Shown: positions 32,416 to 54,800, counted from the first letter of the stretch. The stretch: DNA of 64,000 nt from an uncultured Bacilli bacterium (GCA_948479395.1 CAOLUI010000002.1:1282-65281); one strand, 5' to 3'. The notes: generated by a model from the sequence alone, not told the origin. A program made the numbers and translations.

Positions 32416-32475
32416 ATTTACAAAATCTGGAAGAATTTATTTGACAAAGTGCGTTTTTCATTATATCATTTTATT

Positions 32476-32590
32476 AGCATGATAGATATCATGCTAACCT
32501 TTCGAAACACTTTTACGATTTTATGTAAAAGTGAATCAACCAAAACCCCCTGAAGAGTAGAACGATTTAAAGTTCTGCTCATTTTTTTGG
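32476..32590 (+). ncRNA. Candidate small RNA (~115 nt) with a C-rich single-stranded motif; putative integration target of the island
   Basis: TTGACA(32441)-17 nt-TATCAT promoter; perfect 10-bp hairpin tagcatgata-GA-tatcatgcta (32475-32496); 9-bp hairpin cacttttac/gtaaaagtg (32508-32533); single-stranded ACCAAAACCCCCUGAAGAG; 9-bp terminator stem (32555-32580) plus U7. Its 3' portion recurs at the module junctions in the island. Confidence 0.45.
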
Positions 32591-32647
32591 CTTAAAATAA
32601 GGGCTTGTAAAAATTAACATTTAATAATTTTTCCTCTCAACTACCAA

Positions 32648-33793
32648 CTAACTACCAAAATCGACTATCGTAGGTTGAGGACAAGTTAGTTTATTTATAG
32701 TATTTACTGCATCACTAAGTTTATCTTTGAACATGTGAGTGTAGGTATCTAAGGTTTCTTCGATGGATGCATGACCTAAGAATTGAGATACAACTGCTAT
32801 ATTAGCATTGTTATTTATTAGTAAAGATGCACAACTGTGTCTAAAGTCATGTAATCTTATTCTTTTGATATTAGCATTTCTAGCAATTTCTATGTTCTTA
32901 TGCCTCATTTGATAGAAAGTTATAGGAATGAAATTTCCAAATATAAACCATTCATCATCAAACTCAGCAAATTGTTTCTGTTCTTCATATAATTGTTTTA
33001 AATCTCTAAAAAGAATTTCAGCAATAGGTAAAACCCTGTTGCTTTTTTGCGTTTTAGGTTTGGTTAATTCATAGTAGGTGGAATTTTCAGAGCCATGAGT
33101 TACTGCTTGTTTGGTAACTGATAATCTTTTATCACTCCAATTAACATCTTTCCATTGTAAGCCTCTAGCTTCACCTCTGCGAAGTCCGCAATAATATAAA
33201 GTTTCATACATACACTTAATTTGTAAGTTAGGTGCAGAAGATATAAATTGATTAAATTCTTCTAAAGTATAAAAGTCCATTTCTTTTTTTATATCTGATG
33301 CCGAAGTAAAAGGTTCCATTCTCCCATAAAACTTATTCATATTGAATCCATAGGTTTTAACAGCCCAATTAATGACTATCTTTAAAAACTTCTGAATTTC
33401 ATTTTTATAACTATTTGAAATGTCTACTTTCATCATTTCAGCTCTCCATTTTTGATAATGAATAGCATCCATATCTTTTAATTTAACTTTATCAAACATT
33501 CCAATATACTTAATTCTATCTCGATAAGTTTTTAAGGTAGAGTATCTTACAATATCTTTTTGAACCTCATAATATTTAGTGTATAACTCTTTGAAGGTCA
33601 TATTCATATCACCTTCAAAGACCTCAGACATTTTTAAATATTCTTTTTCAGCACGCTTGGCTTCTGCTTCCGTTTTGTATGCTTTAGAAAACTTTTTGCG
33701 TTTTTTGCCATCCAAACCGGTCTCCCAAACATACCAAATATATTTTCGACCATCTTTGGTCCATTTCTTTTCTTCTAATAGTCTAACTGCCAT
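32648..33793 (-). CDS. int: Tyrosine site-specific integrase (IME module 1)
   Basis: C-terminal catalytic box HDFRHSCASLLI...LGHASIEETLDTYTHMF (R..HxxR..Y), plus an N-terminal SAM-like domain. Confidence 0.9.
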   Translation of the reverse strand: MAVRLLEEKKWTKDGRKYIWYVWETGLDGKKRKKFSKAYKTEAEAKRAEKEYLKMSEVFEGDMNMTFKELYTKYYEVQKDIVRYSTLKTYRDRIKYIGMFDKVKLKDMDAIHYQKWRAEMMKVDISNSYKNEIQKFLKIVINWAVKTYGFNMNKFYGRMEPFTSASDIKKEMDFYTLEEFNQFISSAPNLQIKCMYETLYYCGLRRGEARGLQWKDVNWSDKRLSVTKQAVTHGSENSTYYELTKPKTQKSNRVLPIAEILFRDLKQLYEEQKQFAEFDDEWFIFGNFIPITFYQMRHKNIEIARNANIKRIRLHDFRHSCASLLINNNANIAVVSQFLGHASIEETLDTYTHMFKDKLSDAVNTINKLTCPQPTIVDFGS

Positions 33794-33888
33794 TATAATT
33801 CCTCCTTTGCTTAGTTTAGACTATTCACGCACTTCAATTGGTAGTTTACCATATTTAGTAGTGTTCTCCAATAGAAGTGCTGATAGTT

Positions 33889-35367
33889 CTATCTTTCTAT
33901 TTCAAAATCCTCTTTATTTTTATTGTTTTTACCATAATAACCATGATTAATAGCATCTGCTATAACTTCATAATCTTCTAATCTTTCTTTAGGCTTATCT
34001 CGTTTTAATACTTTGTCTATTGCCTTACACATTTTTTGGAATAGATTTTTCCACTTATTAACTTCGGTTTCTAATTTAGATTTTAAACTCTCAATATTAT
34101 TATTCAAAATATCTACTAATTCACTTAATTTACTAATTTCCTCTTTTTGCTCTTGGATAGTAGATTTTTGCTCTTTAATAATCTCGTTTCTTTTTAGGAG
34201 TTCTTTATTGTTTTTAAAAGTCTTATTTTCTTCAGTCAGTTTATTTATTTCTATATCTTTATTGGTATTATCAGTAGATAAGATAATTATCTTATGCTCT
34301 AAGCCTCTTGTGTACTTTATGAATCTAAGAACATCATCATCTTTATATCCACCAAATTTTCTTTTAACAGGATTTAAAATTTCTTTGTTACTATCATTAT
34401 TTTCGATATTTTTAAGCCCATTTTTAGAGTTTTCTATAATCTTTAAGGTATTTTCCTTTTCTTTGTTTAATTCTTCTAATTCGGCTTTTTTCTCTGCTAT
34501 ATCGTAATCTAATTTAGTTTGATTTTCTTTATTACTTCCAATATCTCCACGATAGAGATTAAATCCTTTTTCAGTAATAAACTTATTGAAGTCATTTTGC
34601 ATTTGATGAAAAGATATTTTGCCACCTCTATCTTTCCAAAATTGATCACAATTCAAGAAGTTACCTTTGACTTCTTCATATACAATTTTTCCTTTATCAT
34701 CACGAAGTAATTTTGGATTAATAGTAGTAATACCTTTTTTATTTGTTGTTTCTTCTTTTACAACATTACCATTAGCATCTTTTACAAAGCACTTCCTTTT
34801 AACTTTTCTAACAACAGGAACAAAATAGGCTTGTAGGTGAGGTGTATCTTCATCATAATGAATTTGAGCAAGAAGTATATTTTCTTCACCTACATAGTTC
34901 TTTAAAAACTCCATACAGGAATCAAAAAAGTAAGTTACAGCATTTGGTATATCTTCCTTTGATTTTATAACAGGAATCATTACAGCTTGTCCTTTTTTAT
35001 CTCCTGTATGATAAGTTCTACCACTATCTTTAAATTTCATTCCAAGTGCTTGAAAAAACTCAGGACCACTTGTGAATGTTACACCATTTAATAGATTAGT
35101 GTTAGGTCTATCTAGATATTCAATTTTTCTATCCTTTAACTTCTTTTTGACTTCTTGATATAAGTTGTTTTGAGTAAGAGATACATATTCATAATTAAAT
35201 TCTCTTCGTTCAATATCATAATTTCCTGTACCTTTTCTATCCTTCATTTCAACACCGATATTATAAAGGTCTGCTTTCTTATATTGGGTTACTACTCGTA
35301 CTACTTGTTTGCCATCATACAATTTTTTATCCTCCTTTGCTTCTGTGTCTTTAGTAGTAGAGGTCAT
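33889..35367 (-). CDS. mob: MobV-family (Mob_Pre / MobM-like) mobilization relaxase (module 1)
   Basis: HxDExxPHxH motif (HYDEDTPHLQAYF) and an N-terminal relaxase fold, with a long coiled-coil C-terminus. Confidence 0.8.
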   Translation of the reverse strand: MTSTTKDTEAKEDKKLYDGKQVVRVVTQYKKADLYNIGVEMKDRKGTGNYDIERREFNYEYVSLTQNNLYQEVKKKLKDRKIEYLDRPNTNLLNGVTFTSGPEFFQALGMKFKDSGRTYHTGDKKGQAVMIPVIKSKEDIPNAVTYFFDSCMEFLKNYVGEENILLAQIHYDEDTPHLQAYFVPVVRKVKRKCFVKDANGNVVKEETTNKKGITTINPKLLRDDKGKIVYEEVKGNFLNCDQFWKDRGGKISFHQMQNDFNKFITEKGFNLYRGDIGSNKENQTKLDYDIAEKKAELEELNKEKENTLKIIENSKNGLKNIENNDSNKEILNPVKRKFGGYKDDDVLRFIKYTRGLEHKIIILSTDNTNKDIEINKLTEENKTFKNNKELLKRNEIIKEQKSTIQEQKEEISKLSELVDILNNNIESLKSKLETEVNKWKNLFQKMCKAIDKVLKRDKPKERLEDYEVIADAINHGYYGKNNKNKEDFEIER

Positions 35368-35379
35368 TTATTGACCTAT

Positions 35380-35440
35380 CTCACTAGGGCATAGCCCAAT
35401 CGTCAGTTTAAGGGTTCACCCTTAAAAATCCCAAAATAAT
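35380..35440 (-). other. Candidate oriT of module 1
   Basis: Block tgacctatctcactagggcatagcccaatcgt, identical to the one upstream of the second mob gene. It contains the gggc-ata-gccc inverted repeat and is followed by the perfect palindrome ttaagggt-tc-acccttaa. Confidence 0.5.
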
Positions 35441-35502
35441 CACTATCGCCACTTTCATTGCTTTGCAACAAAACGTGCCTCGTTCTTATTTTTAGAAGAT
35501 GA

Positions 35503-36459
35503 TTATTCATCATCTTCGAGGTTAGGTTCTTCATATATACAATGATAAATTCTTTTATCACTTGTTCTGCTCTTAGTTATATAAAGTCCTTCTCTTTGTA
35601 ATAAATCCATATTTGCATTTATCATTCTTCCGAATCGTAATGCTGTTGTTTTTAATTTAGCATCATGAATTATACTAGTAGGAGTAAATTCAAAGTCTTT
35701 CTTTAACGATACATATTTGATAAAGAGTATTAAGTTCTCATCAAGTTCATCATCTTCAACAGGATTACTTATTTTAAAGGTTTGATTTTCGTTTCTTTTT
35801 AAATCCATATCAAATCCAGGAAAATCTCTATTAATTACTTTCATAATTAAATGATTATGGTCATTTCTAGTTTCAAACAAAGTTATTTTCCCATCTATAC
35901 AAGCATCAAAAGCTGTACTACCTAATGTTTCATTTCTTTTATTTAAGTGATGTGTAAATAATATTGTGAGATTATATTTCTCACATAATTCTCTTAACTT
36001 AGGTATTAACTTTTGTGCTACATCTTGAAAATCATTTATATCGTAAGAGATACCTAAATCCATATCTTTAAGCATATCAATGATTACTAATTTATTTGCT
36101 GTTTTATCACCTGAAAAATCATCAATCTCTTCTTCATGGTCAAGTATGCTTATATTAGGTTTTCCATCTCTATCTATAATGAATAAAGAATCCTTTTTTG
36201 GAGTTAGACCTAGTGTTTTATAGCGGTCCTGTAATTGACCAAAATCGGACTCTGTGCTAATATATAAGACAGGTGATGGAATTACTTTGTGTCCTAAAAA
36301 TGGTAATCCATTGGTAAGACAGTAGGAAAGTTGCAGTGCCAACATAGACTTTCCTACTTTAGGTTTTGATACAAGTAAATAAACACCTTTAGACCTCATT
36401 AATCCTTCGATTATGATGTCTTTTTTTGTGCTTGTATCTAATTCTTCAATTAGTTTCAT
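35503..36459 (-). CDS. AAA_25/RepA-like P-loop ATPase (putative replication or helicase-loader protein of the IME)
   Basis: Walker A SKPKVGKSM and Walker B LVIIDM; paralogous to 45794..46741. Confidence 0.6.
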   Translation of the reverse strand: MKLIEELDTSTKKDIIIEGLMRSKGVYLLVSKPKVGKSMLALQLSYCLTNGLPFLGHKVIPSPVLYISTESDFGQLQDRYKTLGLTPKKDSLFIIDRDGKPNISILDHEEEIDDFSGDKTANKLVIIDMLKDMDLGISYDINDFQDVAQKLIPKLRELCEKYNLTILFTHHLNKRNETLGSTAFDACIDGKITLFETRNDHNHLIMKVINRDFPGFDMDLKRNENQTFKISNPVEDDELDENLILFIKYVSLKKDFEFTPTSIIHDAKLKTTALRFGRMINANMDLLQREGLYITKSRTSDKRIYHCIYEEPNLEDDE

Positions 36460-36463
36460 ATCG

Positions 36464-36697
36464 TTATCCTTTCTTTATTCTAGATTCTAAATAACTAATA
36501 TTAATATCTAAATAATCTACAACTTCTTTCATAGGTACTACATGCTTTGGAACCATATAGCCTTGTTTGGTTAGTTTCTCTCTAATGTTTCTTTTAATCT
36601 TTAGAGCAGAGTTCCTACCAACTTGGCTAATCTTCATTAAATCTTCTAAACTACACCATTGTTTTGAAACGATTTCTAAAGTTTCCTCAGCAGTCAT
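36464..36697 (-). CDS. Small DNA-binding protein (excisionase/HTH-like)
   Basis: 77 aa and basic; it sits at the conserved position upstream of rep and is paralogous to 46754..46993. Confidence 0.4.
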   Translation of the reverse strand: MTAEETLEIVSKQWCSLEDLMKISQVGRNSALKIKRNIREKLTKQGYMVPKHVVPMKEVVDYLDINISYLESRIKKG

Positions 36698-36716
36698 TTT
36701 ATCCCTCCTTTCTATT

Positions 36717-36806
36717 TTGTAAGGTTAACCTTACAATTCTATTATGCAATAATTAAACTTTATTGTCAAGAAAAACTTACAAAATTGTTGTGAAAAACTT
36801 ACAGGA
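36717..36806. promoter_or_regulatory. Divergent control region of module 1: 20-bp perfect palindrome plus direct repeats
   Basis: Palindrome ttgtaaggtt/aaccttacaa at 36717-36736; direct repeats gaaaaacttaca at 36771 and 36795; extended -10 tgatataat before the XRE gene. Confidence 0.45.
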
Positions 36807-36863
36807 TATGATATAATGAATTTGGGATGATATTATACCCTAATAAACGAAGGAGTATTTTAT

Positions 36864-37388
36864 ATGGATAAAGAACTTACTTTAAAAGCTTTAATAGAAG
36901 GTGGAAGAGATGTAAAGAATTTTTCTCAAAGAGAACTAGCAAGAAGAATCGGTTTGAGTAATACATCTTTAAATGATCTTGAAAATGGAAAAGTTAAAAA
37001 GCCTGATATAGAGGTATTAAGAAAGATTGCTGAAGAACTTGATTTATCTTTAGAACAATTATTAAAAGCAGCAGGATATGATGCTTTAACAAATTGGTTT
37101 TCTAATGATGAATTTAAAAATAAATCTTCTAGAGATTTAAAAAATATTATTAAAGAAGCAAGAATTTTTAAATATGATATTTTGGATTGGGATAGCAATA
37201 AAAGAGAAGTAGCTAGACATGTAATGGAAAACTTAGATAGAGTAGCATACAAATTAGAACTAATAAGAGATAATAAAGGAATAAATTATACATTAGATCA
37301 AGCAATAGAAGATATTAAAGAATCGTTAAAAGATTTAGAAGATGTTGCTAAAAAATATGATTATAGCAAATTGCCTAAAGATGTGTAG
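36864..37388 (+). CDS. XRE-family HTH transcriptional regulator (module 1)
   Basis: HTH motif QRELARRIGLSNTSLNDLENGK. Confidence 0.75.
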   Translation: MDKELTLKALIEGGRDVKNFSQRELARRIGLSNTSLNDLENGKVKKPDIEVLRKIAEELDLSLEQLLKAAGYDALTNWFSNDEFKNKSSRDLKNIIKEARIFKYDILDWDSNKREVARHVMENLDRVAYKLELIRDNKGINYTLDQAIEDIKESLKDLEDVAKKYDYSKLPKDV

Positions 37389-37406
37389 AGAGTAGGAGGA
37401 AAACTA

Positions 37407-38096
37407 ATGAAAAACAAACCGATTATTGGAATTGTTTCAAAGCATTATGCAAAATATAAAGATAGTAGAACGGATACATTTGTAGGAGATGAATTAAAGC
37501 AAGCGGTTTTTGATAATGGTGGTGTAGCCATTGGAATTTTACCGACTGAGGATAAGATTAAATACAGTGGAGATCATTGGCATGATGATTTATCTAAAGT
37601 TGAAAAAGAAAACTTAATTTCTCAAATTAAACTATGTGATGGAATAATTTTACAAGGTGGAATTGAAACTGATAATTATGAAAGTATTGTTTCGAAATAT
37701 TGTTATGATAATGACATTCCCATATTAGGAATATGTGCAGGACAAAATAATATTGTTAGAGCATTAGGGGGAACGACATGTAAAATACCTAATCCTGAAA
37801 AGCACAATAAATCATTTTATGACTATGCTCATAACATAACAATTAATAAAGATTCGAAGTTTTTTTCTATAGTTAACACAGAGAGTATGCCTGTTAATTC
37901 CATACATCAACGAACAATTAATGAGTGTCCTTTATTAGAAAAAGTAGGATTTTGTGAAAACGGTTATCCAGATGTTGTTGAATCTAAAGATAAAAAATTT
38001 TATATAGGAGTTAGATTTCATCCAGAAAGTCTTTACAAGAAGAATGAATACCATAATAGAATATTTGAATATTTTATTAATTGCTGTAAGAAATAG
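37407..38096 (+). CDS. Class I glutamine amidotransferase-like / gamma-glutamyl hydrolase (peptidase C26) family protein
   Basis: LGICAGQ catalytic Cys motif and a downstream His (RFHPE). Confidence 0.65.
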   Translation: MKNKPIIGIVSKHYAKYKDSRTDTFVGDELKQAVFDNGGVAIGILPTEDKIKYSGDHWHDDLSKVEKENLISQIKLCDGIILQGGIETDNYESIVSKYCYDNDIPILGICAGQNNIVRALGGTTCKIPNPEKHNKSFYDYAHNITINKDSKFFSIVNTESMPVNSIHQRTINECPLLEKVGFCENGYPDVVESKDKKFYIGVRFHPESLYKKNEYHNRIFEYFINCCKK

Positions 38097-38105
38097 GAGG
38101 ATTGT

Positions 38106-38669
38106 ATGGAAGTTTTAAAAGCAATAGAAGAAAGAAGAAGTATTAGAGCATTTAAGAGTGATGAACCACCCAAAGAAATTATTGAAGATATACTTAATTG
38201 TGGGAGATTAGCACCATCTGCTAAAAATAGGCAACCTTGGTATTTTGTGATAGCAAGGAATGAGATTAAGGACAAGATAGCTGATTTAATGATTAATTAT
38301 ACACTTAATCATGATGATACTATTGAAAGAGCAAAAATAGGCTGTCCTAGTAGTGTTAATCCAACTGCCAATGTAATTAAACAAGCACCTATATTAGTTG
38401 TAGTATTAAGAGAAAAAAATGATAATTGGACAGTTGGAGATAATTTATCAATAGGTGCTTGTGTTGAAAATATTTGTTTAAGAGCAACAGATTTAGGTTT
38501 AGGAAGTTTATGGATAAGAGATACCGTTTATGTAGCTCAGGAAATAGCAGATCTTGTAAAACATGGTGATATGGAATTAAATTGTGCAGTAGCTTTAGGA
38601 TATGCTAATCAATCCCCAAAACAACGACCAAGAAAAAATTTAAATGAAATACTAGAATGGATTGGATAG
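38106..38669 (+). CDS. Nitroreductase family protein
   Basis: N-terminal RRSIRAF, PSAKNRQPW and a C-terminal dimerization region. Confidence 0.75.
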   Translation: MEVLKAIEERRSIRAFKSDEPPKEIIEDILNCGRLAPSAKNRQPWYFVIARNEIKDKIADLMINYTLNHDDTIERAKIGCPSSVNPTANVIKQAPILVVVLREKNDNWTVGDNLSIGACVENICLRATDLGLGSLWIRDTVYVAQEIADLVKHGDMELNCAVALGYANQSPKQRPRKNLNEILEWIG

Positions 38670-38675
38670 ATAAGT

Positions 38676-39173
38676 ATGAAGGTAGAATTAGCAAAAATAG
38701 AAGATTTAGATGCTATACATAAATTAATATATGATAGATGTTTATGGTTTTCAAAAAAAGGTGTAAAAGGTTGGAATATTAATTTTTATCCTAAAAAATA
38801 TAATCAAGATTATTTTAAAGAACAAATGAAAGTTAATCAATTATTCGTAGCAAAATCAAATAATAAAGTATGTGGCGTTATGCTATTAAAAGAAGAAGAT
38901 AAAGATTTTTGGAATGATAATAAACCTTGTTATTATATTCATCATTTAGCAACAGATATTAATCTAAAAGGTATAGGAAAATTATTATTAAACTATGCGA
39001 TAGAACAATGTAAAAAAGATAATAAAGAATGTTTGAGATTAGATTGTTATAAAACCAGTCAATTTCTTAATGATTATTATGAAAAAGTAGGCTTTAATAA
39101 TGTTGGAAGTGGAAACCTTGATGATTATAACTACAATTTATGGGAGATGAAAGTAATAAACAATGAAAAATAA
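38676..39173 (+). CDS. GNAT family N-acetyltransferase
   Basis: Acetyl-CoA motif region HHLATDINLKGIGKLLLNYAI. Confidence 0.6.
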   Translation: MKVELAKIEDLDAIHKLIYDRCLWFSKKGVKGWNINFYPKKYNQDYFKEQMKVNQLFVAKSNNKVCGVMLLKEEDKDFWNDNKPCYYIHHLATDINLKGIGKLLLNYAIEQCKKDNKECLRLDCYKTSQFLNDYYEKVGFNNVGSGNLDDYNYNLWEMKVINNEK

Positions 39174-39591
39174 TGTTATATATAAGGGCTATAAAATAAG
39201 GGTTAGATGTTTAGATTGGGAGCAAATAAATACTTTAGATAAATATTGGAAAACATTTACGAATTTTATTGAATCTGAAAAAATTATTGGGCTAGGTATG
39301 AATTGGACTGATGATTATTTATATTTTGACTATGCTATAGGTGTTATAAATGATGATGATACTTTTAATAAAATTCAAAATATTGATTTTTCTAGCACAG
39401 ATTTTAATGTTGAATATATTGAATTAAATTTATCTAATTTAAATGAATGGGAGACATTTAAAGGTAAGGATAGTGAAATTAAAGAAATATATGAAAATCA
39501 AATAGATTGCTATAATAGAAGTTATGATTATGAATTAGAGTACATTGATAGTAAAGGAAATATAGAAATCAAAATTCATTTTTTAAATTGA
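39163..39591 (+). CDS. Hypothetical protein
   Basis: 142-aa ORF overlapping the upstream stop codon; no recognizable motif. Confidence 0.35.
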   Translation: MKNNVIYKGYKIRVRCLDWEQINTLDKYWKTFTNFIESEKIIGLGMNWTDDYLYFDYAIGVINDDDTFNKIQNIDFSSTDFNVEYIELNLSNLNEWETFKGKDSEIKEIYENQIDCYNRSYDYELEYIDSKGNIEIKIHFLN

Positions 39592-39811
39592 TGTATATAA
39601 TAAAAACTAAACTAAAATGACAAGATGACAGTAGTTTGAGAGGCCCTCATTACTATTGTCATCTTGTCATAAAAAAGATAACTGAAAAAAAGTAGATAAA
39701 GCATTTAAAAATATAGTCAATACCGTTAATGAAGATATTGAAAAAGGGAAATATGTAATAAAAATAGATGATAATGATAGTATAATAAATAAATTAGAGT
39801 ATGGAGAAGAA

Positions 39812-40159
39812 ATGAAAAAAGAGAAATTAGTTAGTGAATTTAATAAGATAAATGCTGGTAGCAATTTAAATGAGATTCAAAAATATATTACTAAAATGAT
39901 GGATGTAAATAGCTTTAACAATACACCTTTAGAATTGTTTTGTTACTTAACTGAAGAAGTTGGAGAATTAGCAAAAGAAATTAGAAAAACAGAAAAAAAT
40001 ATGGATATGGATATAAAAAAAGAATATGAATCTTGTTTAAAACATGAAATAGCAGATGTATTTATATATTTATTGGCAATATGTAATTCATATAATATAG
40101 ATCTTTTAGAAGCTTTTAAAGATAAAGAAAAGATTAATTTGGATAGAGTTTGGAAGTAA
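39812..40159 (+). CDS. MazG-like nucleotide pyrophosphohydrolase
   Basis: EEVGELAKEI...EIADVFIYLLAI is a typical MazG EExxE/D helix pair. Confidence 0.65.
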   Translation: MKKEKLVSEFNKINAGSNLNEIQKYITKMMDVNSFNNTPLELFCYLTEEVGELAKEIRKTEKNMDMDIKKEYESCLKHEIADVFIYLLAICNSYNIDLLEAFKDKEKINLDRVWK

Positions 40160-41158: not shown

Positions 41159-41272
41159 GTTTATTTATAAGGATTTGCTCATTTCAAAAAATGCTTTAGG
41201 TAATAATTAGGTAATATTTTTTAAAAATTATATATAAAATTTCTATAAACACTTAAAAAAATTGCCAAAATA

Positions 41273-41281: not shown

Positions 41282-41287
41282 TTATTT

Positions 41288-46741: not shown

Positions 46742-46753
46742 ATTTTCTCCTTT

Positions 46754-46993
46754 CTAATTAATTCCTTCTTTTGACATCTTTTGAAGATAATTAATATTAA
46801 TTTTTAAATAATTCACAACTTCATTCATTGGCAACAATTTACTAGGTAATTGATAACCTTTGTTTAACAAATTAATTCTAATTTCACTTTTCAATTTAGA
46901 AGCACTATTTTTGCCTAAACCTGTAAGTTTTCTTAAGTCATTTAAGTCACACCATTGTTTAGAAATCAAATATAATGTTTCTTTTGCGGTCAT
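46754..46993 (-). CDS. Small DNA-binding protein (excisionase/HTH-like, module 2)
   Basis: 79 aa; paralog of 36464..36697 (MTA.ETL...SKQWC.L.DL). Confidence 0.4.
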   Translation of the reverse strand: MTAKETLYLISKQWCDLNDLRKLTGLGKNSASKLKSEIRINLLNKGYQLPSKLLPMNEVVNYLKININYLQKMSKEGIN

Positions 46994-47021
46994 TTATTCA
47001 CCTCACTTTCTATAACTAAAT

Positions 47022-47140
47022 GAGGTTCAAAAACCACTTATTTTTGAACCTCTCTATAATAATTATTACATATTTCTACTATATTAGTCAATATATAATC
47101 GTACAAAAAGTTCAAAAATAATAAAATTTATTGTTTTTAG
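47022..47140. promoter_or_regulatory. Divergent control region of module 2: 12-bp inverted repeat plus reiterated GTTCAAAA boxes
   Basis: gaggttcaaaaa-ccactta-tttttgaacctc at 47022-47052; additional gttcaaaa boxes near 47103 and 47128. Confidence 0.4.
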
Positions 47141-47157
47141 GTTCAAAATAGTATATA

Positions 47158-47706
47158 ATGAATATACGAGGTGTTTTTATGGAAGATCAAACTGTTGGTA
47201 TGTTAATAACAGAAGCTAGAGAGAAAAAAGGAATATCAAAAAATCAACTAGCAGAGTTATGTGGTGTAAGTCATACTGAAATAGCAAGAATTGAATCTGG
47301 AGAACGAGAAGTACCAAATCCTAAAACTTTAAGAAAGATAAGTAAATATATAGATGTAAACTTTAATGAATTAATGTATGCTGCTGGATTAGGTTTACAG
47401 CTTGGCCCTGAAAGTTCTTTATTAAAAGAATATCATTCTAGTTTAAGAGGTCCAAAATTAAAAGAAGCATTGGTAAATGCTTTCTGTAGTTTACAAAACT
47501 GTAATAAATTTGAAGAATTTTTAAAAAAGAAGTTAGAAGATAAAAAGTTATCAGAAGAAGAAAAAGAAATTGTTAGACAAACAAAAGAAGATAATTTTTA
47601 TCAAATTCTTACTATTTACGAAACTATAAACCAATTACAAAAAGCTTTAAGACATGAAAAAGTTGAGAATACTGATGAAGATAGTTTATTAGAAAATGAC
47701 AAATGA
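47158..47706 (+). CDS. XRE-family HTH transcriptional regulator (module 2)
   Basis: HTH motif QLAELCGVSHTEIARIESGER. Confidence 0.7.
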   Translation: MNIRGVFMEDQTVGMLITEAREKKGISKNQLAELCGVSHTEIARIESGEREVPNPKTLRKISKYIDVNFNELMYAAGLGLQLGPESSLLKEYHSSLRGPKLKEALVNAFCSLQNCNKFEEFLKKKLEDKKLSEEEKEIVRQTKEDNFYQILTIYETINQLQKALRHEKVENTDEDSLLENDK

Positions 47707-47771
47707 CAGATAGATAAGGGGACCTATATTTTAATGTCATAGTGTCATAGATACAAAGAGGTGATTAAAAA

Positions 47772-48299
47772 ATGGAAATTACTTTATTAAGACATGCTGA
47801 AAGTGAATATAATAAAATAGGATTATTGCAAGGTAGAATAGATTGTAATTTAAGTGATGAAGGTATAAGGCAAACTAGAGAAAGAGTTAAATCATTTGAT
47901 AGTAGTAGTTATGATGTATGTTTCACATCACCATTAAAAAGAACTCTATTAACAGCTCAAATATTAGTTCCTAATTTACCAATTATTTGTGATGATCGTA
48001 TTATCGAAAGAAGTTTAGGTGACTGGGAAGATACACCAACATCTGATGAAAAGAAATTTTTATTAAATAATATTAATTCAACTCCACCTAATGGGGAATC
48101 AACTTTAGAAATAACAAAAAGAGTTGAGAACTTTGTTGAATTCTTAAAAGATAACTATAGTGATAAAAGAGTTCTTATAGTTACTCATGCTGGAATTGTT
48201 TATGCAATTCAAGTAGCACTTGGTTTAGAAGTGAAACCTATAAACAATTTAGAAACATTAACTATTGATTTAGAAAATAAACACCAAATAAAAAGATAA
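47772..48299 (+). CDS. Histidine phosphatase superfamily (phosphoglycerate mutase-like) protein
   Basis: N-terminal LLRHAES RHG motif and a downstream catalytic His (VTHAG). Confidence 0.7.
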   Translation: MEITLLRHAESEYNKIGLLQGRIDCNLSDEGIRQTRERVKSFDSSSYDVCFTSPLKRTLLTAQILVPNLPIICDDRIIERSLGDWEDTPTSDEKKFLLNNINSTPPNGESTLEITKRVENFVEFLKDNYSDKRVLIVTHAGIVYAIQVALGLEVKPINNLETLTIDLENKHQIKR

Positions 48300-48318
48300 A
48301 ATATAAAAGGAGAATATT

Positions 48319-49158
48319 ATGGTAAAGGAAACTGAAAATTTAATTGAAATTTATAAATTATCTGATGAAGAACATAAAAAAGTTTTAGAATGTCTTAAAA
48401 ATAATTTATTTATTGGTAAGGTATCAGGAAAAACTCCATCAATAGTATTTGTTATAGGTCAGCCAGGTAGTGGTAAAACTACTTTTATAGAAAATTCCGA
48501 TTTATCTAATTATTTAATTATTAATTCTGATGAGTATCGTTATCTTAGCAAATATTCTAAAGAAATTTTATCTAAATATCCAACTCAGTATGCAAAACTT
48601 ACAAATTATGATGCACACTTATGGGGTGATGAATTATTTGATTATGCAATACAAAATGGATATTCTGTTTTGAGAGAAAAGGCTCCAATTGATTTTAGTT
48701 TATTAGAACTAATTAAGACTATATCAAATAATTTCAAAGTTATAATAAATGTGGTTGTTGAAGGAAATTTGGAAAGTTTATTAAGAACCAGAGAAAGATA
48801 TGAAAAAGAAATACTAGAAAACAATAATGCAAAATTATCCAGTATTGAAGCTCATAATAATTGTTATAACTTATTACCAACCTTTATATCGATGTGTATA
48901 TCACTTGGTATAAAAGTTAATTATGTTGTAAAAGGAGATATAATTTTGGCTTTAAATAATCCTCTAGAGCTATTACAAAATATTAGAGCAGAGAGTAATG
49001 AAAAAGCTAGTCTTAATTATAAAGAGAGAATAGATAAAATTAAAGAATCTATGATAAATAGAAATGCACCTGAAGATCAGTTTAATGAACTTCAGAAAAT
49101 TGAAGATATATATATTCAGGTAAATGGTGTTAATAACAATAAAATATCTAAAAAATAA
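48319..49158 (+). CDS. P-loop kinase, zeta-toxin/AAA_33-like
   Basis: Walker A VIGQPGSGKTTF near the N-terminus, as in zeta-toxin-type kinases. Confidence 0.5.
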   Translation: MVKETENLIEIYKLSDEEHKKVLECLKNNLFIGKVSGKTPSIVFVIGQPGSGKTTFIENSDLSNYLIINSDEYRYLSKYSKEILSKYPTQYAKLTNYDAHLWGDELFDYAIQNGYSVLREKAPIDFSLLELIKTISNNFKVIINVVVEGNLESLLRTRERYEKEILENNNAKLSSIEAHNNCYNLLPTFISMCISLGIKVNYVVKGDIILALNNPLELLQNIRAESNEKASLNYKERIDKIKESMINRNAPEDQFNELQKIEDIYIQVNGVNNNKISKK

Positions 49159-50112
49159 TATAATGAAAGCGAGTGAAATTATGAGAAAAGCATATTCTGT
49201 AATTACAAATTTTAGTGATGAAGCAATTAGAATATTAAAAGATAATAATATTGATTTGACAATAAGAAATTCTGAAGTTGTTCCTAATTCCGAAGAATTA
49301 ATTACTTTACTTCAAGAATATGACATTATAATAATTGGAGTAAAAACTATTGTTAAAAAAGAAATTCTTGAACATATAGATTCTCATAAAGTAATAGCAA
49401 CTTTATCTATTGGATTAGATCATATAGATAATGAGGTAAAAAAATCTAATTTAGTTACAGTTTTAAATATAAAGGATGCTAATACAGTTTCTGTAGCAGA
49501 GCATATTTTCTCCTTTATCCTTTCGCTTAATAAAAGAATAACAGAATCAAATGACTTGGTATTACAAAAGAAAGGACATAAAAAGAATTTGCATGAAAGA
49601 CCTGAAGATATAAGTGGTAAGAAATTAGTTTAATAGGTGCAGGAAATATCACAAAAGAAGTTATAAAAATAGCTAAAATATTTAATATGGAAATATCTTG
49701 TTTTACTAGAACTCTTCATAAACACAACGATTTATTAAATTTAGGAATTAATTTTAAAACCTTAGATGAAATATTAAAAGAAAGTGATATTATTAATGTA
49801 AGTATTCCTTTAACAGATGAAACTAGAAATTTAATATCTAAAGATAAGATTGATTTAATAAAATCAACAGCAACATTTATTAATACTTCTAGAACTGATA
49901 TAGTAGATACAAAAGCATTAATAGAAAAGGCAGATGAATATAATACTTTCTATGTAGGACTTGATATAGATTTAGGTGGGTATGAAGAAATATTTTCTAA
50001 ATTTAGAAATAATGTGATTGTAACTCCTCATATAGCGGGTGTATCAAAACAAGCTATAACAAGAATGGATAATGAACTTGCAAACAAGATTGTAAAAATA
50101 GTTAGGAGATGA
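49124..50112 (+). pseudogene. D-isomer-specific 2-hydroxyacid dehydrogenase, disrupted by a -1 frameshift
   Basis: ORFs 49124..49633 and 49687..50112 are the N- and C-halves of one dehydrogenase. The GxGxxG NAD motif is split: ...GKKLV* then IGAGNITKEV in the next frame. Restoring one G near 49629 gives GKKLGLIGAGNI. Confidence 0.6.
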
Positions 50113-50116
50113 TGGT

Positions 50117-51235
50117 ATGAATCTAAATGAAATAAATCAAAGAATTAGTGATAGATTAGATTGCTTTTATTGGCAGACGGATAGAAAAATAAGTGCTAAA
50201 AAAGCAGCCATGATATGGAAAGATAGACATTCTGCTATAACTAATGAAGAATTGTTAGATATGATTAATGCAGAATTAAAAGAAGATAAATTAGCATACA
50301 TCAAACCATTTGATGAAAATGCCCAAACAAGTTTAGGAAATGTAAATTCAGTAAGAGTTGGAGTTTTAGAAAGTGGAAAAGAGGTAATAATAAGATGTCA
50401 TCCAAAAGGTATAAGAAATGGTTATTTCTATGCTGAAAGTTTAGCCTCTCAAATTGCATTAAAAAATGGACTTCCTGCTTATAAAACTTATTATATTCAC
50501 GAATTAGAAAATGAAAGTGATATCTCTTATCAAGTTATAGAGAAATTAGAGGGGGATACAGTTCAATTTAGTTTAAAAGAACATCCTGAAAATGAAGAAC
50601 AACTTGTTATTGAAATGGGAAAAACTATGGCAAGACTTCATAAAATAAGAGTTAATGGATTTGGTCCTTTTGATAATGAACAAGCTAAGAATGGTAATTT
50701 AAAAGGGTTACATAAATCACTAAAAGATTCAATAAATGCAGGATTAGAAGAAAATCTTGAAAGATTAGTTACATACAATATTTTAACCAAAGAAGTAGCA
50801 GATAAAATGAAAAAACTATTTGATGATAACGAATTACTTAACTCAGATACATCAGTTTTAATTCATAATGATTTTGCTGATTGGAATTTATTAACTGATG
50901 GTAATACTATAACAGGTATTATAGATTGGGATGAATGTGTTGCAGGAAATCCTATTCAAGAAATAGCTTGTTGGTCAACATTCTTTGATCCAGAAAGAAT
51001 CAAACCATTTTTAAAAGGATATTTTAGTGAAACAGCAGTATATGATAATTTTGATGAGATGTTTCAATTAATGAGATTAAGATATACCATTTCAAAAATG
51101 GCTTTAAGAATCAAAAGATACACATATGAGCAAACACCATTTTTAAAAAGTATGATTGAAAAGGGAGAAAAACATTTAGAAGAGTTATCAGAAATATTTA
51201 ATCTTAATGAAAATATTAATATTCAGAATAAATAA
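50117..51235 (+). CDS. Phosphotransferase enzyme family (APH/choline-kinase-like) protein
   Basis: Catalytic loop HNDFADWNLL and metal-binding IDWDE, typical of APH-fold kinases. Confidence 0.65.
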   Translation: MNLNEINQRISDRLDCFYWQTDRKISAKKAAMIWKDRHSAITNEELLDMINAELKEDKLAYIKPFDENAQTSLGNVNSVRVGVLESGKEVIIRCHPKGIRNGYFYAESLASQIALKNGLPAYKTYYIHELENESDISYQVIEKLEGDTVQFSLKEHPENEEQLVIEMGKTMARLHKIRVNGFGPFDNEQAKNGNLKGLHKSLKDSINAGLEENLERLVTYNILTKEVADKMKKLFDDNELLNSDTSVLIHNDFADWNLLTDGNTITGIIDWDECVAGNPIQEIACWSTFFDPERIKPFLKGYFSETAVYDNFDEMFQLMRLRYTISKMALRIKRYTYEQTPFLKSMIEKGEKHLEELSEIFNLNENINIQNK

Positions 51236-51247
51236 AGGAGGAAAATT

Positions 51248-51613
51248 ATGAATAAGGAAAAATATGAAAGTTGGACAAAAGAATTTATGGAATCTTGGAA
51301 AGAATTGGATTGGGAAAGAACTTTAAATACATTAGATAAAAATGTTGAATATTATGAAAATCCAATCGATAAACCATGTAGTAATTTTGAAGAAGTAACA
51401 AACTTATGGAATGTCGTTGCTGATAATCAAAAAGATATAGATTATAAGTTTGAAATTGTTGCTTTTAATGAAAATACTTGTATTATTAATTGGCAAATGA
51501 CTAGAGTAATGACAAAAATAAATGAAAAACAAGAAATTGATGGTATATTTCAAATCTCATTAAATAATGAGGGTAAATGTACATATTTTAAACAATGGAG
51601 ATTTACAAGATAA
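51248..51613 (+). CDS. NTF2/SnoaL-like small protein
   Basis: 121 aa with an alpha+beta barrel-like pattern; weak assignment. Confidence 0.3.
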   Translation: MNKEKYESWTKEFMESWKELDWERTLNTLDKNVEYYENPIDKPCSNFEEVTNLWNVVADNQKDIDYKFEIVAFNENTCIINWQMTRVMTKINEKQEIDGIFQISLNNEGKCTYFKQWRFTR

Positions 51614-51772
51614 TTAGTTAATTAAAAATTAAAATTTTAGGTAATAATTAGGTATTAAAATTCTAGATTTTTATTAAAATTTTCTAATTATTATTAATTA
51701 AAAATAAGCAAAATTAAACTAAAAATAAGGGAAAAGTGAAAAATTGTTTCAAAAAGAACTGAAAAAATTTCG

Positions 51773-51810
51773 CCCCCTGAAGAGTCAGCGAAAGCTGGCT
51801 CACTTTTATT
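51773..51810 (+). repeat. Partial copy of the sRNA 3' end / att-like motif
   Basis: cgCCCCCTGAAGAGtcagcgaaagctggctcacttttatt. Confidence 0.5.
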
Positions 51811-51899
51811 ATTATAAAATCTTAATATGGTAAAATCCTAAGAAAAATTTACTAGATATGTTATAATTATTTTAGAATGAATGAAGAAGTTAAGATAGT

Positions 51900-52040
51900 T
51901 GGCAAGAATCATTAAATAATAAATCTTTAAACGATCTTGAAAAAGGAAAATTGACCAAAAAGGACAATATGAGAAATCAGCAAATTTTGACTGATGTCAA
52001 GCCGCTTTTATATATGGATCATTAGGATGTAAAAAATGTA
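51900..52040 (+). pseudogene. Remnant of an XRE-family regulator gene (third, decayed module)
   Basis: Translates to ESLNNKSLNDLEKGKLTKKD..., homologous to the SLNDLENGK segment of 36864..37388. It lacks the N-terminal helix and a start codon. Confidence 0.45.
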
Positions 52041-52139
52041 TGAAACTTAGTCGAGAATAGGATGGCAAATTAAGCAATATAACAAAAGAAAAGTTTACAT
52101 AAATGTAAAAAGTTTGATTAGTATATAGGAAGTAAAAAT

Positions 52140-52650
52140 ATGATAATACAAATAGATATAGATAACACACTTACAGATATTGAAGATGATTTAATGAATG
52201 CGGCATTTGATTATGCAAAAAGTTTAAATAAAACTATAAATACTAATCGTTTAGAATCAATGGATGATAACAATGATGGAAATAAATATCAAAAAATATT
52301 TGCTTTTAATTATGAAGAACTTAAATATTTTTTAAAAGAGATATAAGAAAGAATTACTGATAAAGATAAACCAAGATACTTAGCTTCAGAAATAATAGAA
52401 TTACTTCATTTAGAAGGGAAAAAAATAATTATATTACAACAAGATATTTAGAATTTCATGATAATCCATATAAACAAAGTGAAATGTGGTTAAAAAAGAA
52501 CAATATTTATTATGATAAATTAATTGTTAATGTTAGAAAAAAAGGTGAAATTTGTAAACAGGAAAAAATAGATTTATTTATAGATGATAATATTAGTAAT
52601 TGTTTAGATGTAACAAAATATGGAATAAAAACAATTATCTTAAATAAGTA
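52140..52650 (+). pseudogene. 5'(3')-deoxyribonucleotidase (NT5C-like HAD) gene, frameshifted
   Basis: The N-terminal HAD motif IQIDIDNTLTD is in ORF 52140..52346. The C-terminal half (EMWLKKNNIYYDKLI...IDLFIDDN) is readable only in another frame at about 52430-52650. Confidence 0.5.
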
Positions 52651-53277
52651 AAAAATAAAAGATAATATGATAGTATCATTCGATAATTGGAAAGATATTT
52701 ATGATTATATAAAAAATGAAGGTGAATAAAATATGATTATGTTTTAAAATTAGGGTTTGATAAGAAATAGAAAATTATATTCAAAATATTAAAAATACTT
52801 CATAAGAAAATAATATATCAGATAAAGAAAAAATTGGAGACTAATATCACTATTTATATATTTGTGAAGTAGAAGACAAAAGTCCAGTGAAAGGACTATT
52901 AAAAAAAAATAGATAGTAAATTAAAAAAATAATAAGTTAAATATGACAAAGAAAATTTGGAAATATTTCCTTAAACTAAGCGTTATGATTGTCACTTATA
53001 AAATTGATTAGTCGCGACAAATCAATTTGAAAGAAATAGTCGTGTATGAAGAAATTACTGAAAATTTAGAAGAGCAATTAGCAGATAAAGAACTATTAGA
53101 AATAAAAAAGCATATTGTTCATCTTAGGTTTTTTTTAGGACTATACGTATCGATAAAAAATAAATGTAAATTTTGATGAAATTAAATTAAAGATTCTTAT
53201 TTTTATGTAACTATTATAACAATTTTTAAAACTTTAAAATTATATTTTTAATCAAATAAACAAATTAAAATTTAATA

Positions 53278-53318
53278 CCACCTGAAGAGTCAACAAAATC
53301 TAGCTCATTTTTTTTTGA
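53278..53318 (+). repeat. Divergent copy of the sRNA 3' end / att-like motif (possible attR)
   Basis: taCCACCTGAAGAGtcaacaaaatctagctca followed by T9. Confidence 0.45.
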
Positions 53319-53424
53319 AGCTTATATAATGATAATTTCAAATTAAAGTTATATAATAAAATGATTTTTAATTATCAATTGATATTCAAAAGAAAATACG
53401 TTATATTAGCAATGGTGATAGACT

Positions 53425-53730
53425 GTGGAAATAACAGATATATTAAAGCTAACAAAAATATCCATGAATTATGGAACATATGATATGGTTCCCACAGTTA
53501 AAAATCGTGTGTCAAAGCGGAAGTATGGGTTATCACAATTTGATATTGAAGATTATATAGCGAGTTTAGAAGAAGAAAATTTGTATAAGGGCCCTGAACC
53601 AGATAGGAATTGCCCAGGAGAGGAACTATTTATTTTTAAAAAAGAGATAGTAGCCAATGTTATTTTTTATACTAAATTAAAATATAAGAATAATCAGATA
53701 AAGATATTGTCTTGTCATGAAGATGAATAA
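53425..53730 (+). CDS. MqsR-family toxin-like protein (mRNA interferase)
   Basis: 101 aa. The central block KYGLSQFDIEDYIASLEEENLYKG aligns with MqsR ELGLDFDGMCNVIIGLSESDFYKS, and the C-terminal KILSCHEDE aligns with LIVSFKEK. Confidence 0.5.
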   Translation: MEITDILKLTKISMNYGTYDMVPTVKNRVSKRKYGLSQFDIEDYIASLEEENLYKGPEPDRNCPGEELFIFKKEIVANVIFYTKLKYKNNQIKILSCHEDE

Positions 53731-53744
53731 TTAGGAGTTATATA

Positions 53745-54701
53745 ATGGAGAATAGAGAAAATTTAAGAGTTAGAAAAATAAAAACCAAAGTAAAAGAAAA
53801 GGAAATTGAATTTGAAGAATATTATGTGATTGATCCATATACAAAAGAAGAAATATTTGATAGAAATATTGAATTAGAAAATGATTTAAGATTATATGAT
53901 ATTTATAAAAAACAAGTTAATTTATTAACTTCTGAAGAAATTAAAGCAATAAGAAAAAAATATGAAATGAATCAAAAAGAATTTGCTTTAGCAATTGGTC
54001 TTGGAGAAATAACAATTCATCAATTTGAAAATGGTTCTATTCAAACTGACTTTGTAGATTCGATTATAAGATTAAGTGAGGATCCTGATATAATGTATAA
54101 TTTTTTAAATAAAAATCAATATAATTTTTCGGAAGAAGAATATTTAAAATTTTTGAATAAGGTTTATTTACTCAAAAATTTAAAAGAACATAAAATTGCT
54201 CATTTTAATTTAAATGAAGTAGGTAATTTAGATTTTAGAACAGAAGATGTTTTATCTGTGGCGAATCAATTAATAGTTAAATATAATAATAGAGTTGATC
54301 AATTGAGCGAAAAATATGATATTGAAGATGTGTGCAGTGTAGCTGAATATATAACCCCTTTAAAACTTCAAAAATTATTATATTATATTCAAGGGCTATC
54401 AGCAAGGGTGTATGGTAAGCCAGCATTTAATAATCATATTTATGCTTGGTCATATGGTCCTGTTATTAGTGATGTATATCATGTGTATAAAGGAAGAAAT
54501 TTAATAACAACACCTAATGATAATATTAAAATAAGTGAAGGTTTGAATAAAATTATAGATATTGTTATTTCAAGTTATGGTCAAATAGAAGCAGAAAAAT
54601 TAATTGATTTAACTCATCAAGAAGAGCCATGGATTAATACACCAAAAGATCATATTATAGATTTCGATTTAATTAAAAAATATTTTGAACAAGTTTATTA
54701 A
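53745..54701 (+). CDS. Antitoxin-like protein: MqsA-type HTH fused to a Panacea (DUF4065) domain
   Basis: HTH segment LTSEEIKAIRKKYEMNQKEFALAIGLGEITIHQFENG. The C-terminal block QKLLYYIQGLSARVYGKPAFNNHIYAWSYGPVISDVY is the Panacea/DUF4065 signature. Confidence 0.65.
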   Translation: MENRENLRVRKIKTKVKEKEIEFEEYYVIDPYTKEEIFDRNIELENDLRLYDIYKKQVNLLTSEEIKAIRKKYEMNQKEFALAIGLGEITIHQFENGSIQTDFVDSIIRLSEDPDIMYNFLNKNQYNFSEEEYLKFLNKVYLLKNLKEHKIAHFNLNEVGNLDFRTEDVLSVANQLIVKYNNRVDQLSEKYDIEDVCSVAEYITPLKLQKLLYYIQGLSARVYGKPAFNNHIYAWSYGPVISDVYHVYKGRNLITTPNDNIKISEGLNKIIDIVISSYGQIEAEKLIDLTHQEEPWINTPKDHIIDFDLIKKYFEQVY

Positions 54702-54800
54702 AAATTAAAATAAAAAAAATATAAGCTTATATTTAATTGAGTTTATTTTTAAGATAGTTTAGATTTTTTTTAATTATTAATTATAATATTATGAAAAAAA

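Follow-up and report, generated by a model that had tools for sequence, protein, structure and literature searches.

Two probable integrative mobilizable elements in tandem at a conserved small RNA gene of an uncultured gut Bacilli bacterium

Tandem arrays of integrative mobilizable elements (IMEs), and their growth by accretion, have been documented, the partners typically carrying distantly related integrases of similar specificity (PMC5704250). Small RNA (sRNA) genes are likewise known as chromosomal attachment (att) sites, attB, for prophages, examples being ryeB of Salmonella and the E. coli gene ryeE (Bobay et al. 2013, PMC3603311). Here we describe a 64,000-nucleotide stretch of DNA from an uncultured Bacilli bacterium (GCA_948479395.1, CAOLUI010000002.1:1282-65281), hereafter the window, in which positions 32546-51785 very probably consist of two distinct IMEs of the same family, IME1 and IME2, placed head to tail by tyrosine-integrase recombination at the 3' end of a conserved sRNA gene of ∼110 nt that lies downstream of recG and a DUF975 gene. 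Tandem IME accretion is in itself a well-known, textbook kind of event, and the locus fits the description of accretion in the above review point by point. What goes beyond the textbook is the target, an unannotated sRNA, and a retron cassette that is Type VI-like but lacks a helix-turn-helix (HTH) gene.

The precise extent of the insertion is given by chromosomes that lack it. Ten contigs encode exactly the DUF975 protein of the window by look-up, and five contigs from five sequencing runs (L003, L005, L006, L007 and L008) are 100% identical to the window up to position 32558 and then again 100% identical from 51773, the right side of L008 being only a 15-nt tail. The 13-bp repeat at which the two sides meet is too short to collapse an assembly, and the empty-site contigs therefore represent real molecules without exactly 19,227 bp. 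This block, the sum of IME1 (8,581 bp) and IME2 (10,646 bp), is a precise insertion. The flanks of the empty-site contigs are identical to the window over up to 8 kb, indicating that the presence/absence polymorphism is recent. A sequence-only reading of this DNA had placed a 22-kb island at 32441-54750; its limits were too wide, as the polymorphic insertion runs from 32546/32559 to 51772/51785. The proposal in that reading of repeated site-specific integration into one att site is supported by the empty site, by the att cores and by the boundary of IME1 in other genomes.

The att core, CCCCCTGAAG, has plus-strand copies at 32546, 41127 and 51773, and a one-mismatch (9/10) copy lies at 53278. 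Copy 1 (attL of IME1; 32546..32558) reads CCCCCTGAAGAGT and overlaps by these 13 bp with 51773-51785 in the empty-site contigs; copy 2 (41127..41152), which is both attR of IME1 and attL of IME2, consists of CCCCCTGAAG followed by the terminator hairpin of IME2 itself, GGAGCGCATAGCGCTCC; and copy 3 (attR of IME2; 51773..51802) again reads CCCCCTGAAGAGT, followed by the terminator found in the empty-site strains. The outer copies thus share 13 bp, and the inner copy shares 10-12 bp with either of them. The degenerate copy 4 (53278..53310; CCACCTGAAGAGTCAAC...), also on the plus strand, has a decayed terminator and resembles a right-end copy in contig L014. The first three copies each precede a G+C-rich hairpin and a T-run, the hairpins being unrelated in sequence. 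On its left the core is flanked by the sRNA's invariant single-stranded 3' segment, and on its right by the Rho-independent terminator of the element. As every element comes with a terminator hairpin of its own, a terminator always follows the first core, which is continuous with the sRNA; the sRNA regains a terminator much as tRNA-targeting islands restore the 3' end of the tRNA. The second core is chimeric, its left flank travelling with IME1 elsewhere and its right flank matching the attL ends of IME2-like elements. In the window as a whole there are five matches to CCCCCTGAAG, the one-mismatch copy included, against 0.41 expected. The fifth is an exact copy at 29574-29583, in the loop of the terminator hairpin that follows a PFOR gene (GAAGCTG-CCCCCTGAAGA-CAGCTTC). 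It was not adopted as an att site, a single extra copy being compatible with chance, which is its probable origin, although it could be a secondary att site.

Independent support for the second core comes from IME1 in other genomes. IME1 (32556..41136; 8,581 bp from core to core) is found again, 97-99.9% identical, in contigs L014-L022, always ending at 41136, and the UDG-family protein that it carries is found with identical sequence in 21 contigs by exact-protein look-up. In L014, L016, L018, L020 and L021 a nucleotide similarity of 97-98% breaks off precisely where the second core ends, at 41136, and is followed by a different terminator hairpin and different genes. These contigs belong to another species, in which recG reaches only 64% nucleotide identity (metagenome-assembled genome (MAG) GCA_951801365.1). 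The contrast between recG at 64% and the IME1 cargo at 97% in the host of L014 implies recent horizontal transfer. In the same MAG the IME1 derivative (L014:6020-10987) lacks the part corresponding to window positions 32920-36509, comprising most of int, mob and rep, and is a freshly made cis-mobilizable element (CIME). By contrast, L015 holds a complete IME1 (99.5-99.9%) behind the same sRNA gene in another chromosomal context, again ending at 41136. Behind it lies a different element (L015:10978-18400) with an integrase, DUF1064 and DUF5906 (primase/helicase-like) proteins, which ends at a third copy of the core, looks like a satellite-type island using the same att site, and has an end that recurs directly behind the sRNA in L128. 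The second core is thus a true boundary between elements, IME1 passes from one species to another, and this site often holds arrays.

IME2 (41137..51782; 10,646 bp from core to core with the retron cassette) bears an identical 18-mer, TTAGGTAATAATTAGGTA, at both ends. The 18-mer comprises two TAGGTAAT units and is located at 41196, 60 nt beyond the right side of the second core, and at 51637, 120 nt short of the third on its left, forming arm-type tandem repeats on the plus strand at 41196..41216 and 51637..51654. In IME1 arm-type direct repeats lie, also on the plus strand, at 32638..32658 (CAACTACCAA / TAACTACCAA; this left pair is kept in L014) and 41001..41021 (AACTACC ... CAACTACCAA), the lineage-specific motif on both sides of attP being AACTACCAA. 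A further AACTACCAA motif on the minus strand at 33838-33847, between the start of int1 and the stop of mob1, may be an autoregulatory binding site of the integrase. The attL of ∼15 related elements in other species has a constant layout of core, terminator, TTTATAAGGGTTTG-like stretch, a pair of tandem repeats (period ∼11 bp), bidirectional terminator and 3' end of int, in which the tandem repeats differ with the integrase lineage (TAGGTGGCA, TATGTAACA, TAGGTAGCA or TAGGTACCCA). The attL architecture of IME2 agrees with that of these relatives, the extra ∼1.75 kb between the arm repeats (end 41216) and the terminator preceding int2 (42975-43010) being the retron cassette.

Protein domains were assigned with Pfam, further profiles were taken from NCBIfam, PHROG and PADLOC, and pairwise protein identities are from BLASTP. 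These analyses bear out the order and orientation given by the sequence-only reading, in which each module has int, mob, an AAA_25 gene and a small open reading frame (ORF) on the minus strand, followed on the plus strand by an XRE regulator and cargo. In IME1 these are int1 (32648..33793, 381 aa; PF00589 E 6e-26, SAM-like and arm-binding domains, phrog_1 integrase E 4e-71), mob1 (33889..35322, PF01076), rep1 (35503..36459, 318 aa; PF13481 E 2e-26, matching the helicase part of PHROG primase-helicases), a 77-aa Xis-like/HTH ORF (36464..36697) and, on the plus strand, the XRE-family regulator (36864..37388; HTH_3 E 9e-14). Their counterparts in IME2 are int2 (43014..44069, 351 aa; PF00589 E 2.7e-27), mob2 (44205..45647, 480 aa, PF01076, TTG start), rep2 (45794..46741, 315 aa; AAA_25/DnaB_C-like), a 79-aa ORF (46754..46993) that is similar to, and in the same position as, the 77-aa ORF of IME1, and the XRE-family regulator (47158..47706; HTH_3 E 1e-14). 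The int, mob, rep and xis ORFs are intact in both elements, and in each the XRE gene and the cargo make up a rightward operon. The catalytic R...HxxR...Y signature is legible in both integrases, and in Int1 the motifs GLRRGE, HDFRHS and TYTH can be read. Relatives of the 77-aa ORF of IME1, 44-82% identical, are present in IMEs of other species.

The mob, rep and int products are paralogous, as had been suggested, but to very different degrees. Mob1 and Mob2 are 85% identical, against 46% for the integrases and 44% for the AAA_25 Rep proteins, and a comparison of IME1 with IME2 in sliding 100-nt windows reveals the same mosaic at the nucleotide level, with 76-93% identity over mob and its upstream region (33927-35427), sharp borders, and 45-74% over int, rep and xis. 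Mob proteins of this type are 82-85% identical in elements of other species with different Int and Rep, and the mob-oriT (origin of transfer) module is therefore no evidence of local duplication; the comparison points to either a family trait or a frequently exchanged cassette. Upstream of mob the 32-bp oriT-like block is exactly the same in both elements (35372-35403 and 45695-45726), again as previously noted, while the adjoining hairpin differs in sequence (AAGGGTGAACCCTT in IME1, TAGGGACGTGTCCCTA in IME2) and keeps its pairing. From the conserved block and the hairpin, the regions at 35372..35431 and 45695..45754 (both minus strand) are candidate oriTs. Both relaxases score above the Pfam threshold for Mob_Pre PF01076 (47 bits for Mob1 and 51 bits for Mob2, against 25.5), with only profile positions 100-155 aligned. 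A stop at codon 9 raised the possibility that mob2 is a pseudogene, which was rejected as both mob genes place AAAGGAGG before a TTG downstream of that stop. In mob1 the likely start is the TTG at 35322, and the upstream ATG extension, which takes the longest ORF to 35367, is probably an artefact of ORF calling. No type IV secretion or coupling-protein families were detected among all ORFs of at least 60 aa in 32546-51785.

The target of integration is the 3' end of the unannotated sRNA gene. In the window its promoter, TTGACA-17-TATCAT (32441..32469, plus strand), agrees with 11/12 consensus positions, and the gene as it now stands (32476..32590, plus strand) comprises a chromosomal 5' part, made up of hairpin 1, hairpin 2 and the single-stranded segment CAACCAAAACCCCCUGAAG, and a terminator supplied by IME1 (32555-32580). 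A scan for the exact 19-mer CAACCAAAACCCCCTGAAG in one genome per species identified at least 120 loci, one per genome, nearly all in gut MAGs of Bacilli, Tenericutes or Erysipelotrichaceae, many of them at contig ends. Because the 19-mer was the exact query, the invariance of CAACCAAAACCCCCUGAAG among the matches is partly by construction. Among the matches listed, two are chance occurrences in coding sequence and the remaining 118 display a promoter, two hairpins and a variable terminator, the TTGACA/TATAAT pair being kept in ∼100 species. In the same matches, 74 of the 98 loci with enough sequence have an upstream recG in the same orientation (51 of these 74 with a RecG match ending less than 400 nt from the motif, and 14 more with a DUF975 match too), and a full-length Int1/Int2-like integrase is encoded within 1.5 kb downstream in 12 of 70. 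Identical element ends also occur behind the sRNA in different species. The recurrence of integrases and of identical element ends across species shows that the 3' part of the sRNA gene is the integrase target, and, as each element brings a different terminator, the 3' end of the sRNA would be swapped with every integration.

The structure of the RNA is strongly supported. In an alignment of 96 copies, with 95 distinct sequences, to a covariance model built from these loci, 93.6% of cells are paired and all 16 of 16 pairs display compensatory changes, with a covariation score of 0.62 compared with 0.23 for shuffles and 0.07-0.16 for slid controls. The empty-site sRNA folds at -36 kcal/mol (z = -6.7), and covariance model R1 matches the window at 32464-32555 with 85 bits. 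Rfam returned no match in the window at gathering thresholds, the best hit of the empty-site sRNA being RAGATH-12 (E 0.16, 17.9 bits vs 75). Other identities for the target were considered and set aside. ARAGORN detected no tRNA or tmRNA in the window, in agreement with the Rfam result, and a 24-aa ORF ending at a TGA in the core was rejected, since L014 and other species keep neither the frame nor the ORF, in contrast to the covarying hairpins. A scan of the window for sites complementary to the C-rich segment of the sRNA matched only the sRNA gene itself.

Between the left arm repeats and int2, IME2 carries a retron that was missing from the earlier cargo lists. Type VI retrons are organized as small protein (SP)-HTH-reverse transcriptase (RT), and their 'hybrid RNA' (hyRNA) holds both msr-msd and the coding sequence of the small toxic protein. 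In Retron-Vpa2 the SP is translationally repressed, while in Retron-Sen3 it is constitutive and neutralised by the HTH protein; a Cro/C1-type HTH accompanies ∼78% of Type VI retrons and is the essential antitoxin in both Vpa2 and Sen3 (bioRxiv 10.1101/2025.10.22.683967; 10.64898/2026.04.27.721009). The IME2 cassette consists, all on the plus strand, of a promoter with an extended -10 (41253-41281) and a predicted structured noncoding RNA (together 41253..41559), a putative SP, hydrophobic and 65 aa long (41560..41757), and a 388-aa RT of the Type VI clade (41806..42972; RVT_1). The RT matches PADLOC RT_VI with E 7.6e-49 over profile positions 19-277 of 279, the next model scoring 8.8e-25, and its YVDD, NARFH (NAxxH) and ITG ((V/I)TG) motifs are legible. 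In the minimum free energy fold of the leader (z -2.6) the SP Shine-Dalgarno sequence, AAAGGAGG, is paired with an upstream CCCCUUU. Rfam searches of the leader at E<10 gave only noise.

The same leader-SP-RT cassette is present in three other contigs (L149:5435-7170, L150:5434-7146 and L153:5438-7152), with RTs at 84%, 72% and 52% identity. One setting is next to a restriction-modification system, another within a serine-recombinase element, and a third next to other tyrosine integrases. Across the four contexts a 65-aa ORF, 31-80% identical, occupies the same place, and the leader motifs and the Shine-Dalgarno/anti-Shine-Dalgarno pair are kept, four sequences being too few for covariation statistics. 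There is no HTH ORF in 41137-43010, no HTH domain in the RT and no conserved HTH neighbour in the three other contigs. The lack of an HTH gene in all four contexts points to an HTH-less branch, and the cassette would itself be a mobile module. The alternative that the retron is a separate integrated element with its own att was dismissed, as there is no copy of the core between the RT gene and int2; the arm repeats and attL layout place the cassette within IME2. Taken together, these observations lead to a broader proposal, which we regard as possible but somewhat short of probable as a whole: an undescribed, widely conserved regulatory sRNA of uncultured low-GC gut Bacilli, transcribed from a strong sigma-A promoter, would be a shared landing pad for tyrosine-integrase elements of several kinds (IMEs, satellite-like islands and remnants), whose cargo would include an HTH-less Type VI retron branch that passes as a 1.7-kb cassette from one mobile element to another, unrelated one.

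From what is known of the family, Int and the small Xis-like protein would excise each element, or the composite, as a circle, whose transient replication the AAA_25 helicase-like protein may support. The MobV-like relaxase would then nick the oriT-like hairpin region upstream of mob, and a co-resident conjugative element outside the window would supply the mating pore. Several observations weigh against this interpretation of the two modules as mobilizable elements. The MobV signature comprises a motif III of the form HxDExxPHxH, containing a metal-binding histidine triad, and a motif I, HxxR, with the catalytic residue (His22 in MobM). When aligned to MobM (4LVI), Mob1 and Mob2 have HYDEDTPHLQ in place of HLDESTPHMH, so that the third metal-binding histidine is a glutamine; their N-terminal region gives no significant alignment to MobM and contains no clear copy of motif I; and the match to the NCBIfam MobV model NF041497 (84.5 bits) is under its cut-off of 100. 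The Xis assignment derives from a match to the ICEBs1 excisionase with E 0.002, below the NCBIfam cut-off. No conjugative helper is encoded in the 64-kb window. Circular (attP) junctions were not recovered, as a degenerate pattern scan of JGI metagenomes gave only 29 unrelated high-GC chance matches and the exact attP1 and attP2 patterns had no match in IMG/VR. Finally, IME2 was never found outside this array, its independent mobility being argued from its anatomy and from relatives with integrases that are 42-59% identical.

The absence of circular forms from IMG/VR cuts both ways, as it also disfavours the possibility that the modules are phage satellites or defective prophages, similar to phage-inducible chromosomal islands, that depend on helper phages rather than conjugation. 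Satellites likewise contain an integrase and a small Xis-like protein, have divergent XRE regulators and encode a primase-helicase-like AAA_25 protein, and the neighbour of IME1 in L015, with its DUF1064/DUF5906 gene set, occupies the same site. Nevertheless, both modules carry a Mob_Pre/MobV-type relaxase with an upstream hairpin region, and no capsid, terminase, packaging or morphogenesis-redirection genes were evident among the scanned ORFs, making a satellite origin very improbable. A single ancestral island that was duplicated in tandem on the spot, its copies then diverging and exchanging their cargo for other genes, would explain the common order and orientation of the backbone, the similarity of the Mob proteins and the identical 32-bp block. 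This scenario is scarcely credible given the divergence of Int and Rep, the sharp borders around the mob-oriT module, the similarly high identity of Mob in elements of other species, and the different arm repeats and terminators of IME1 and IME2, and is effectively refuted by the presence of IME1 in other genomes with other partners. Equally hard to sustain is a static chromosomal island in which CCCCCTGAAG is a common terminator-associated motif and the integrases are relics. The copy in the ordinary terminator behind the PFOR gene is what such a view would predict, whereas the precise presence or absence of the block at the core between identical flanks, the coincidence of the IME1 boundaries with the core in other species and the intact int, mob, rep and xis ORFs are not.

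A more serious question is whether the pair was acquired or lost as one composite unit through the outermost att copies rather than by two integrations in this chromosome. In this species only the tandem (at least five contigs) and empty (five contigs) states were observed, and exact-protein look-ups with the RT, UDG, Int2 and SnoaL proteins revealed no single-occupancy state, which is a further point against stepwise integration here. As only both elements or neither are seen, sequential integration fits these data no better than composite acquisition or loss. The greater similarity of the outer cores to each other than to the inner copy points in the same direction, and composite transfer has been documented for tandems of CIMEs with integrative conjugative elements (ICEs) (PMC5704250). 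On the other hand, most contigs are short and the sampling is small, and the occurrence of IME1 without IME2 in other genomes argues that the pair was assembled by accretion at some point. Movement of the pair as a unit is thus unlikely, without being far-fetched, and two IMEs that accreted at one sRNA gene remain the favoured explanation of the locus.

The third module recognized by the sequence-only reading, an XRE fragment with pseudogenes, has a different history. The XRE fragment is real (∼51912-51965; LNNKSLNDLEKGKLTKKD, 67% identical to residues 31-48 of XRE1) and is followed by frameshifted HAD-like ORFs at 52140-52651. However, everything from 51786 to 54701, including the XRE fragment, the HAD-like ORFs, the fourth core and the genes beyond it, is also present in the empty-site contigs, and hence lies outside the recent insertion. 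The supposed module is a much older, decayed and integrase-less remnant (51786..53277, CIME-like) between the third core and the degenerate fourth, and is fixed in every contig of the lineage examined, with or without IME1 and IME2. The fourth att copy, with its 9/10 core and decayed hairpin, is probably too degenerate to function. Just outside it, at 53425-54701, a weak MqsR-like toxin ORF (101 aa, E 0.002) and a 318-aa protein with HTH and SocA/Panacea domains look like a toxin-antitoxin pair.

The cargo of the two elements otherwise agrees with the earlier reading, which did not report the retron. IME1 carries, at 37407..40890 on the plus strand, genes for a GATase/C26 amidotransferase, a nitroreductase, a GNAT protein, an unassigned 142-aa protein, a MazG-like protein and the UDG-superfamily protein. 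IME2 carries, at 47772..51613 on the same strand, genes for a His_Phos_1 phosphatase, a Zeta_toxin-like P-loop kinase, a 2-Hacid_dh dehydrogenase split into two ORFs (49124-49633 and 49687-50112), an APH-like kinase and a SnoaL-like protein. Within the IME2 cargo (47772-51235) the Zeta-toxin-family kinase (PF06414 E 6.5e-20) has no recognisable epsilon/PezA antitoxin; the histidine phosphatase encoded directly upstream could be a functional counterpart. The region is bordered on the left by recG (29777-31756) and the DUF975 membrane-protein gene (31798-32415), which lies between recG and the sRNA gene, and on the right by a DUF421 gene on the minus strand (54801-55502). Farther to the right, a single 629-aa ORF (55799-57688) fuses a MatE efflux domain with a cytidylate-kinase-like (PF13189) domain. 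The window has ∼25% G+C and a strongly positive GC skew. Contigs identical or near-identical to it derive from mouse-gut metagenomes and the MAGs GCA_949737775.1 and GCA_949416165.1, and relatives are labelled 'uncultured Bacilli / Tenericutes / Erysipelotrichaceae' in the databases. The host can thus be placed among the uncultured, low-GC Bacilli of the gut.

The locus is an example of IME accretion that is clean and delimited throughout, in a group of bacteria for which metagenomes are the only source, with an exact core, arm sites, an empty site and copies in other species. It also illustrates the shuffling of defence and metabolic cargo in the mouse and human gut, including a retron, MazG- and UDG-like genes, a Zeta-like kinase and toxin-antitoxin modules. 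The conserved sRNA family downstream of recG is now open to modelling and searching, and the integrase-attB pairs, with a 10-13-bp core in a conserved 19-mer, are possible tools for site-specific integration in uncultured Bacilli. The HTH-less Type VI-like cassette, if real, would have to restrain a predicted small toxic protein in the absence of the antitoxin on which Vpa2 and Sen3 depend, and could be used to ask whether some lineages can do without the HTH antitoxin. The sRNA family and the retron cassette may prove more useful than the island itself.

Among described systems the individual elements most resemble the MobV-type IMEs of Firmicutes, such as IMESag-rpsI of Streptococcus agalactiae and the streptococcal families (Coluzzi et al. 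2017, Guedon et al. 2017; PMC5357655, PMC5704250), with which they have in common a size of 8-11 kb, a tyrosine integrase, a MobV-like relaxase, a candidate oriT upstream of mob, variable cargo, a lack of mating-pore genes and site-specific insertion at the 3' end of a conserved gene. They differ in their target, an sRNA gene in place of rpsI, other protein genes or a tRNA, in the divergent relaxase, in the AAA_25 helicase-like replication module and in the host, an uncultured low-GC gut member of the Bacilli. As an array, the locus parallels ICESt1/ICESt3 and CIMEs at the 3' end of fda in Streptococcus thermophilus (Pavlovic 2004, Bellanger 2011, in PMC5704250) and the IME-ICE tandems at tRNA-Lys of S. 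agalactiae, with which it shares several att copies in direct orientation, chimeric internal att sites, related but distant integrases of common specificity and a decayed, CIME-like remnant without an integrase between att copies. Here, in contrast to the ICESt1/ICESt3 tandems, both intact partners are IMEs and no ICE is present. NBU1 of Bacteroides, whose core is ∼14 bp, and islands in tRNA and tmRNA genes similarly use a short core in the 3' end of a structured RNA gene, the element replacing the displaced end; at the present site only the terminator, and not the body of the mature RNA, is replaced, by hairpins unrelated in sequence. The prophage sites ryeB and ryeE are, as here, sRNA genes with stable hairpins that serve as attB, but these are enterobacterial and used by phages, whereas the sRNA described here belongs to no Rfam family and is used by IMEs and other islands across many species of gut Bacilli. 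Finally, the retron of IME2 shares with Retron-Vpa2 and Retron-Sen3 a Type VI RT and a putative small hydrophobic protein between a predicted structured RNA and the RT, and its predicted fold would sequester the SP ribosome-binding site, in line with the hyRNA model, the differences being its Firmicutes host and the lack of an HTH antitoxin gene both here and in the three other contexts.

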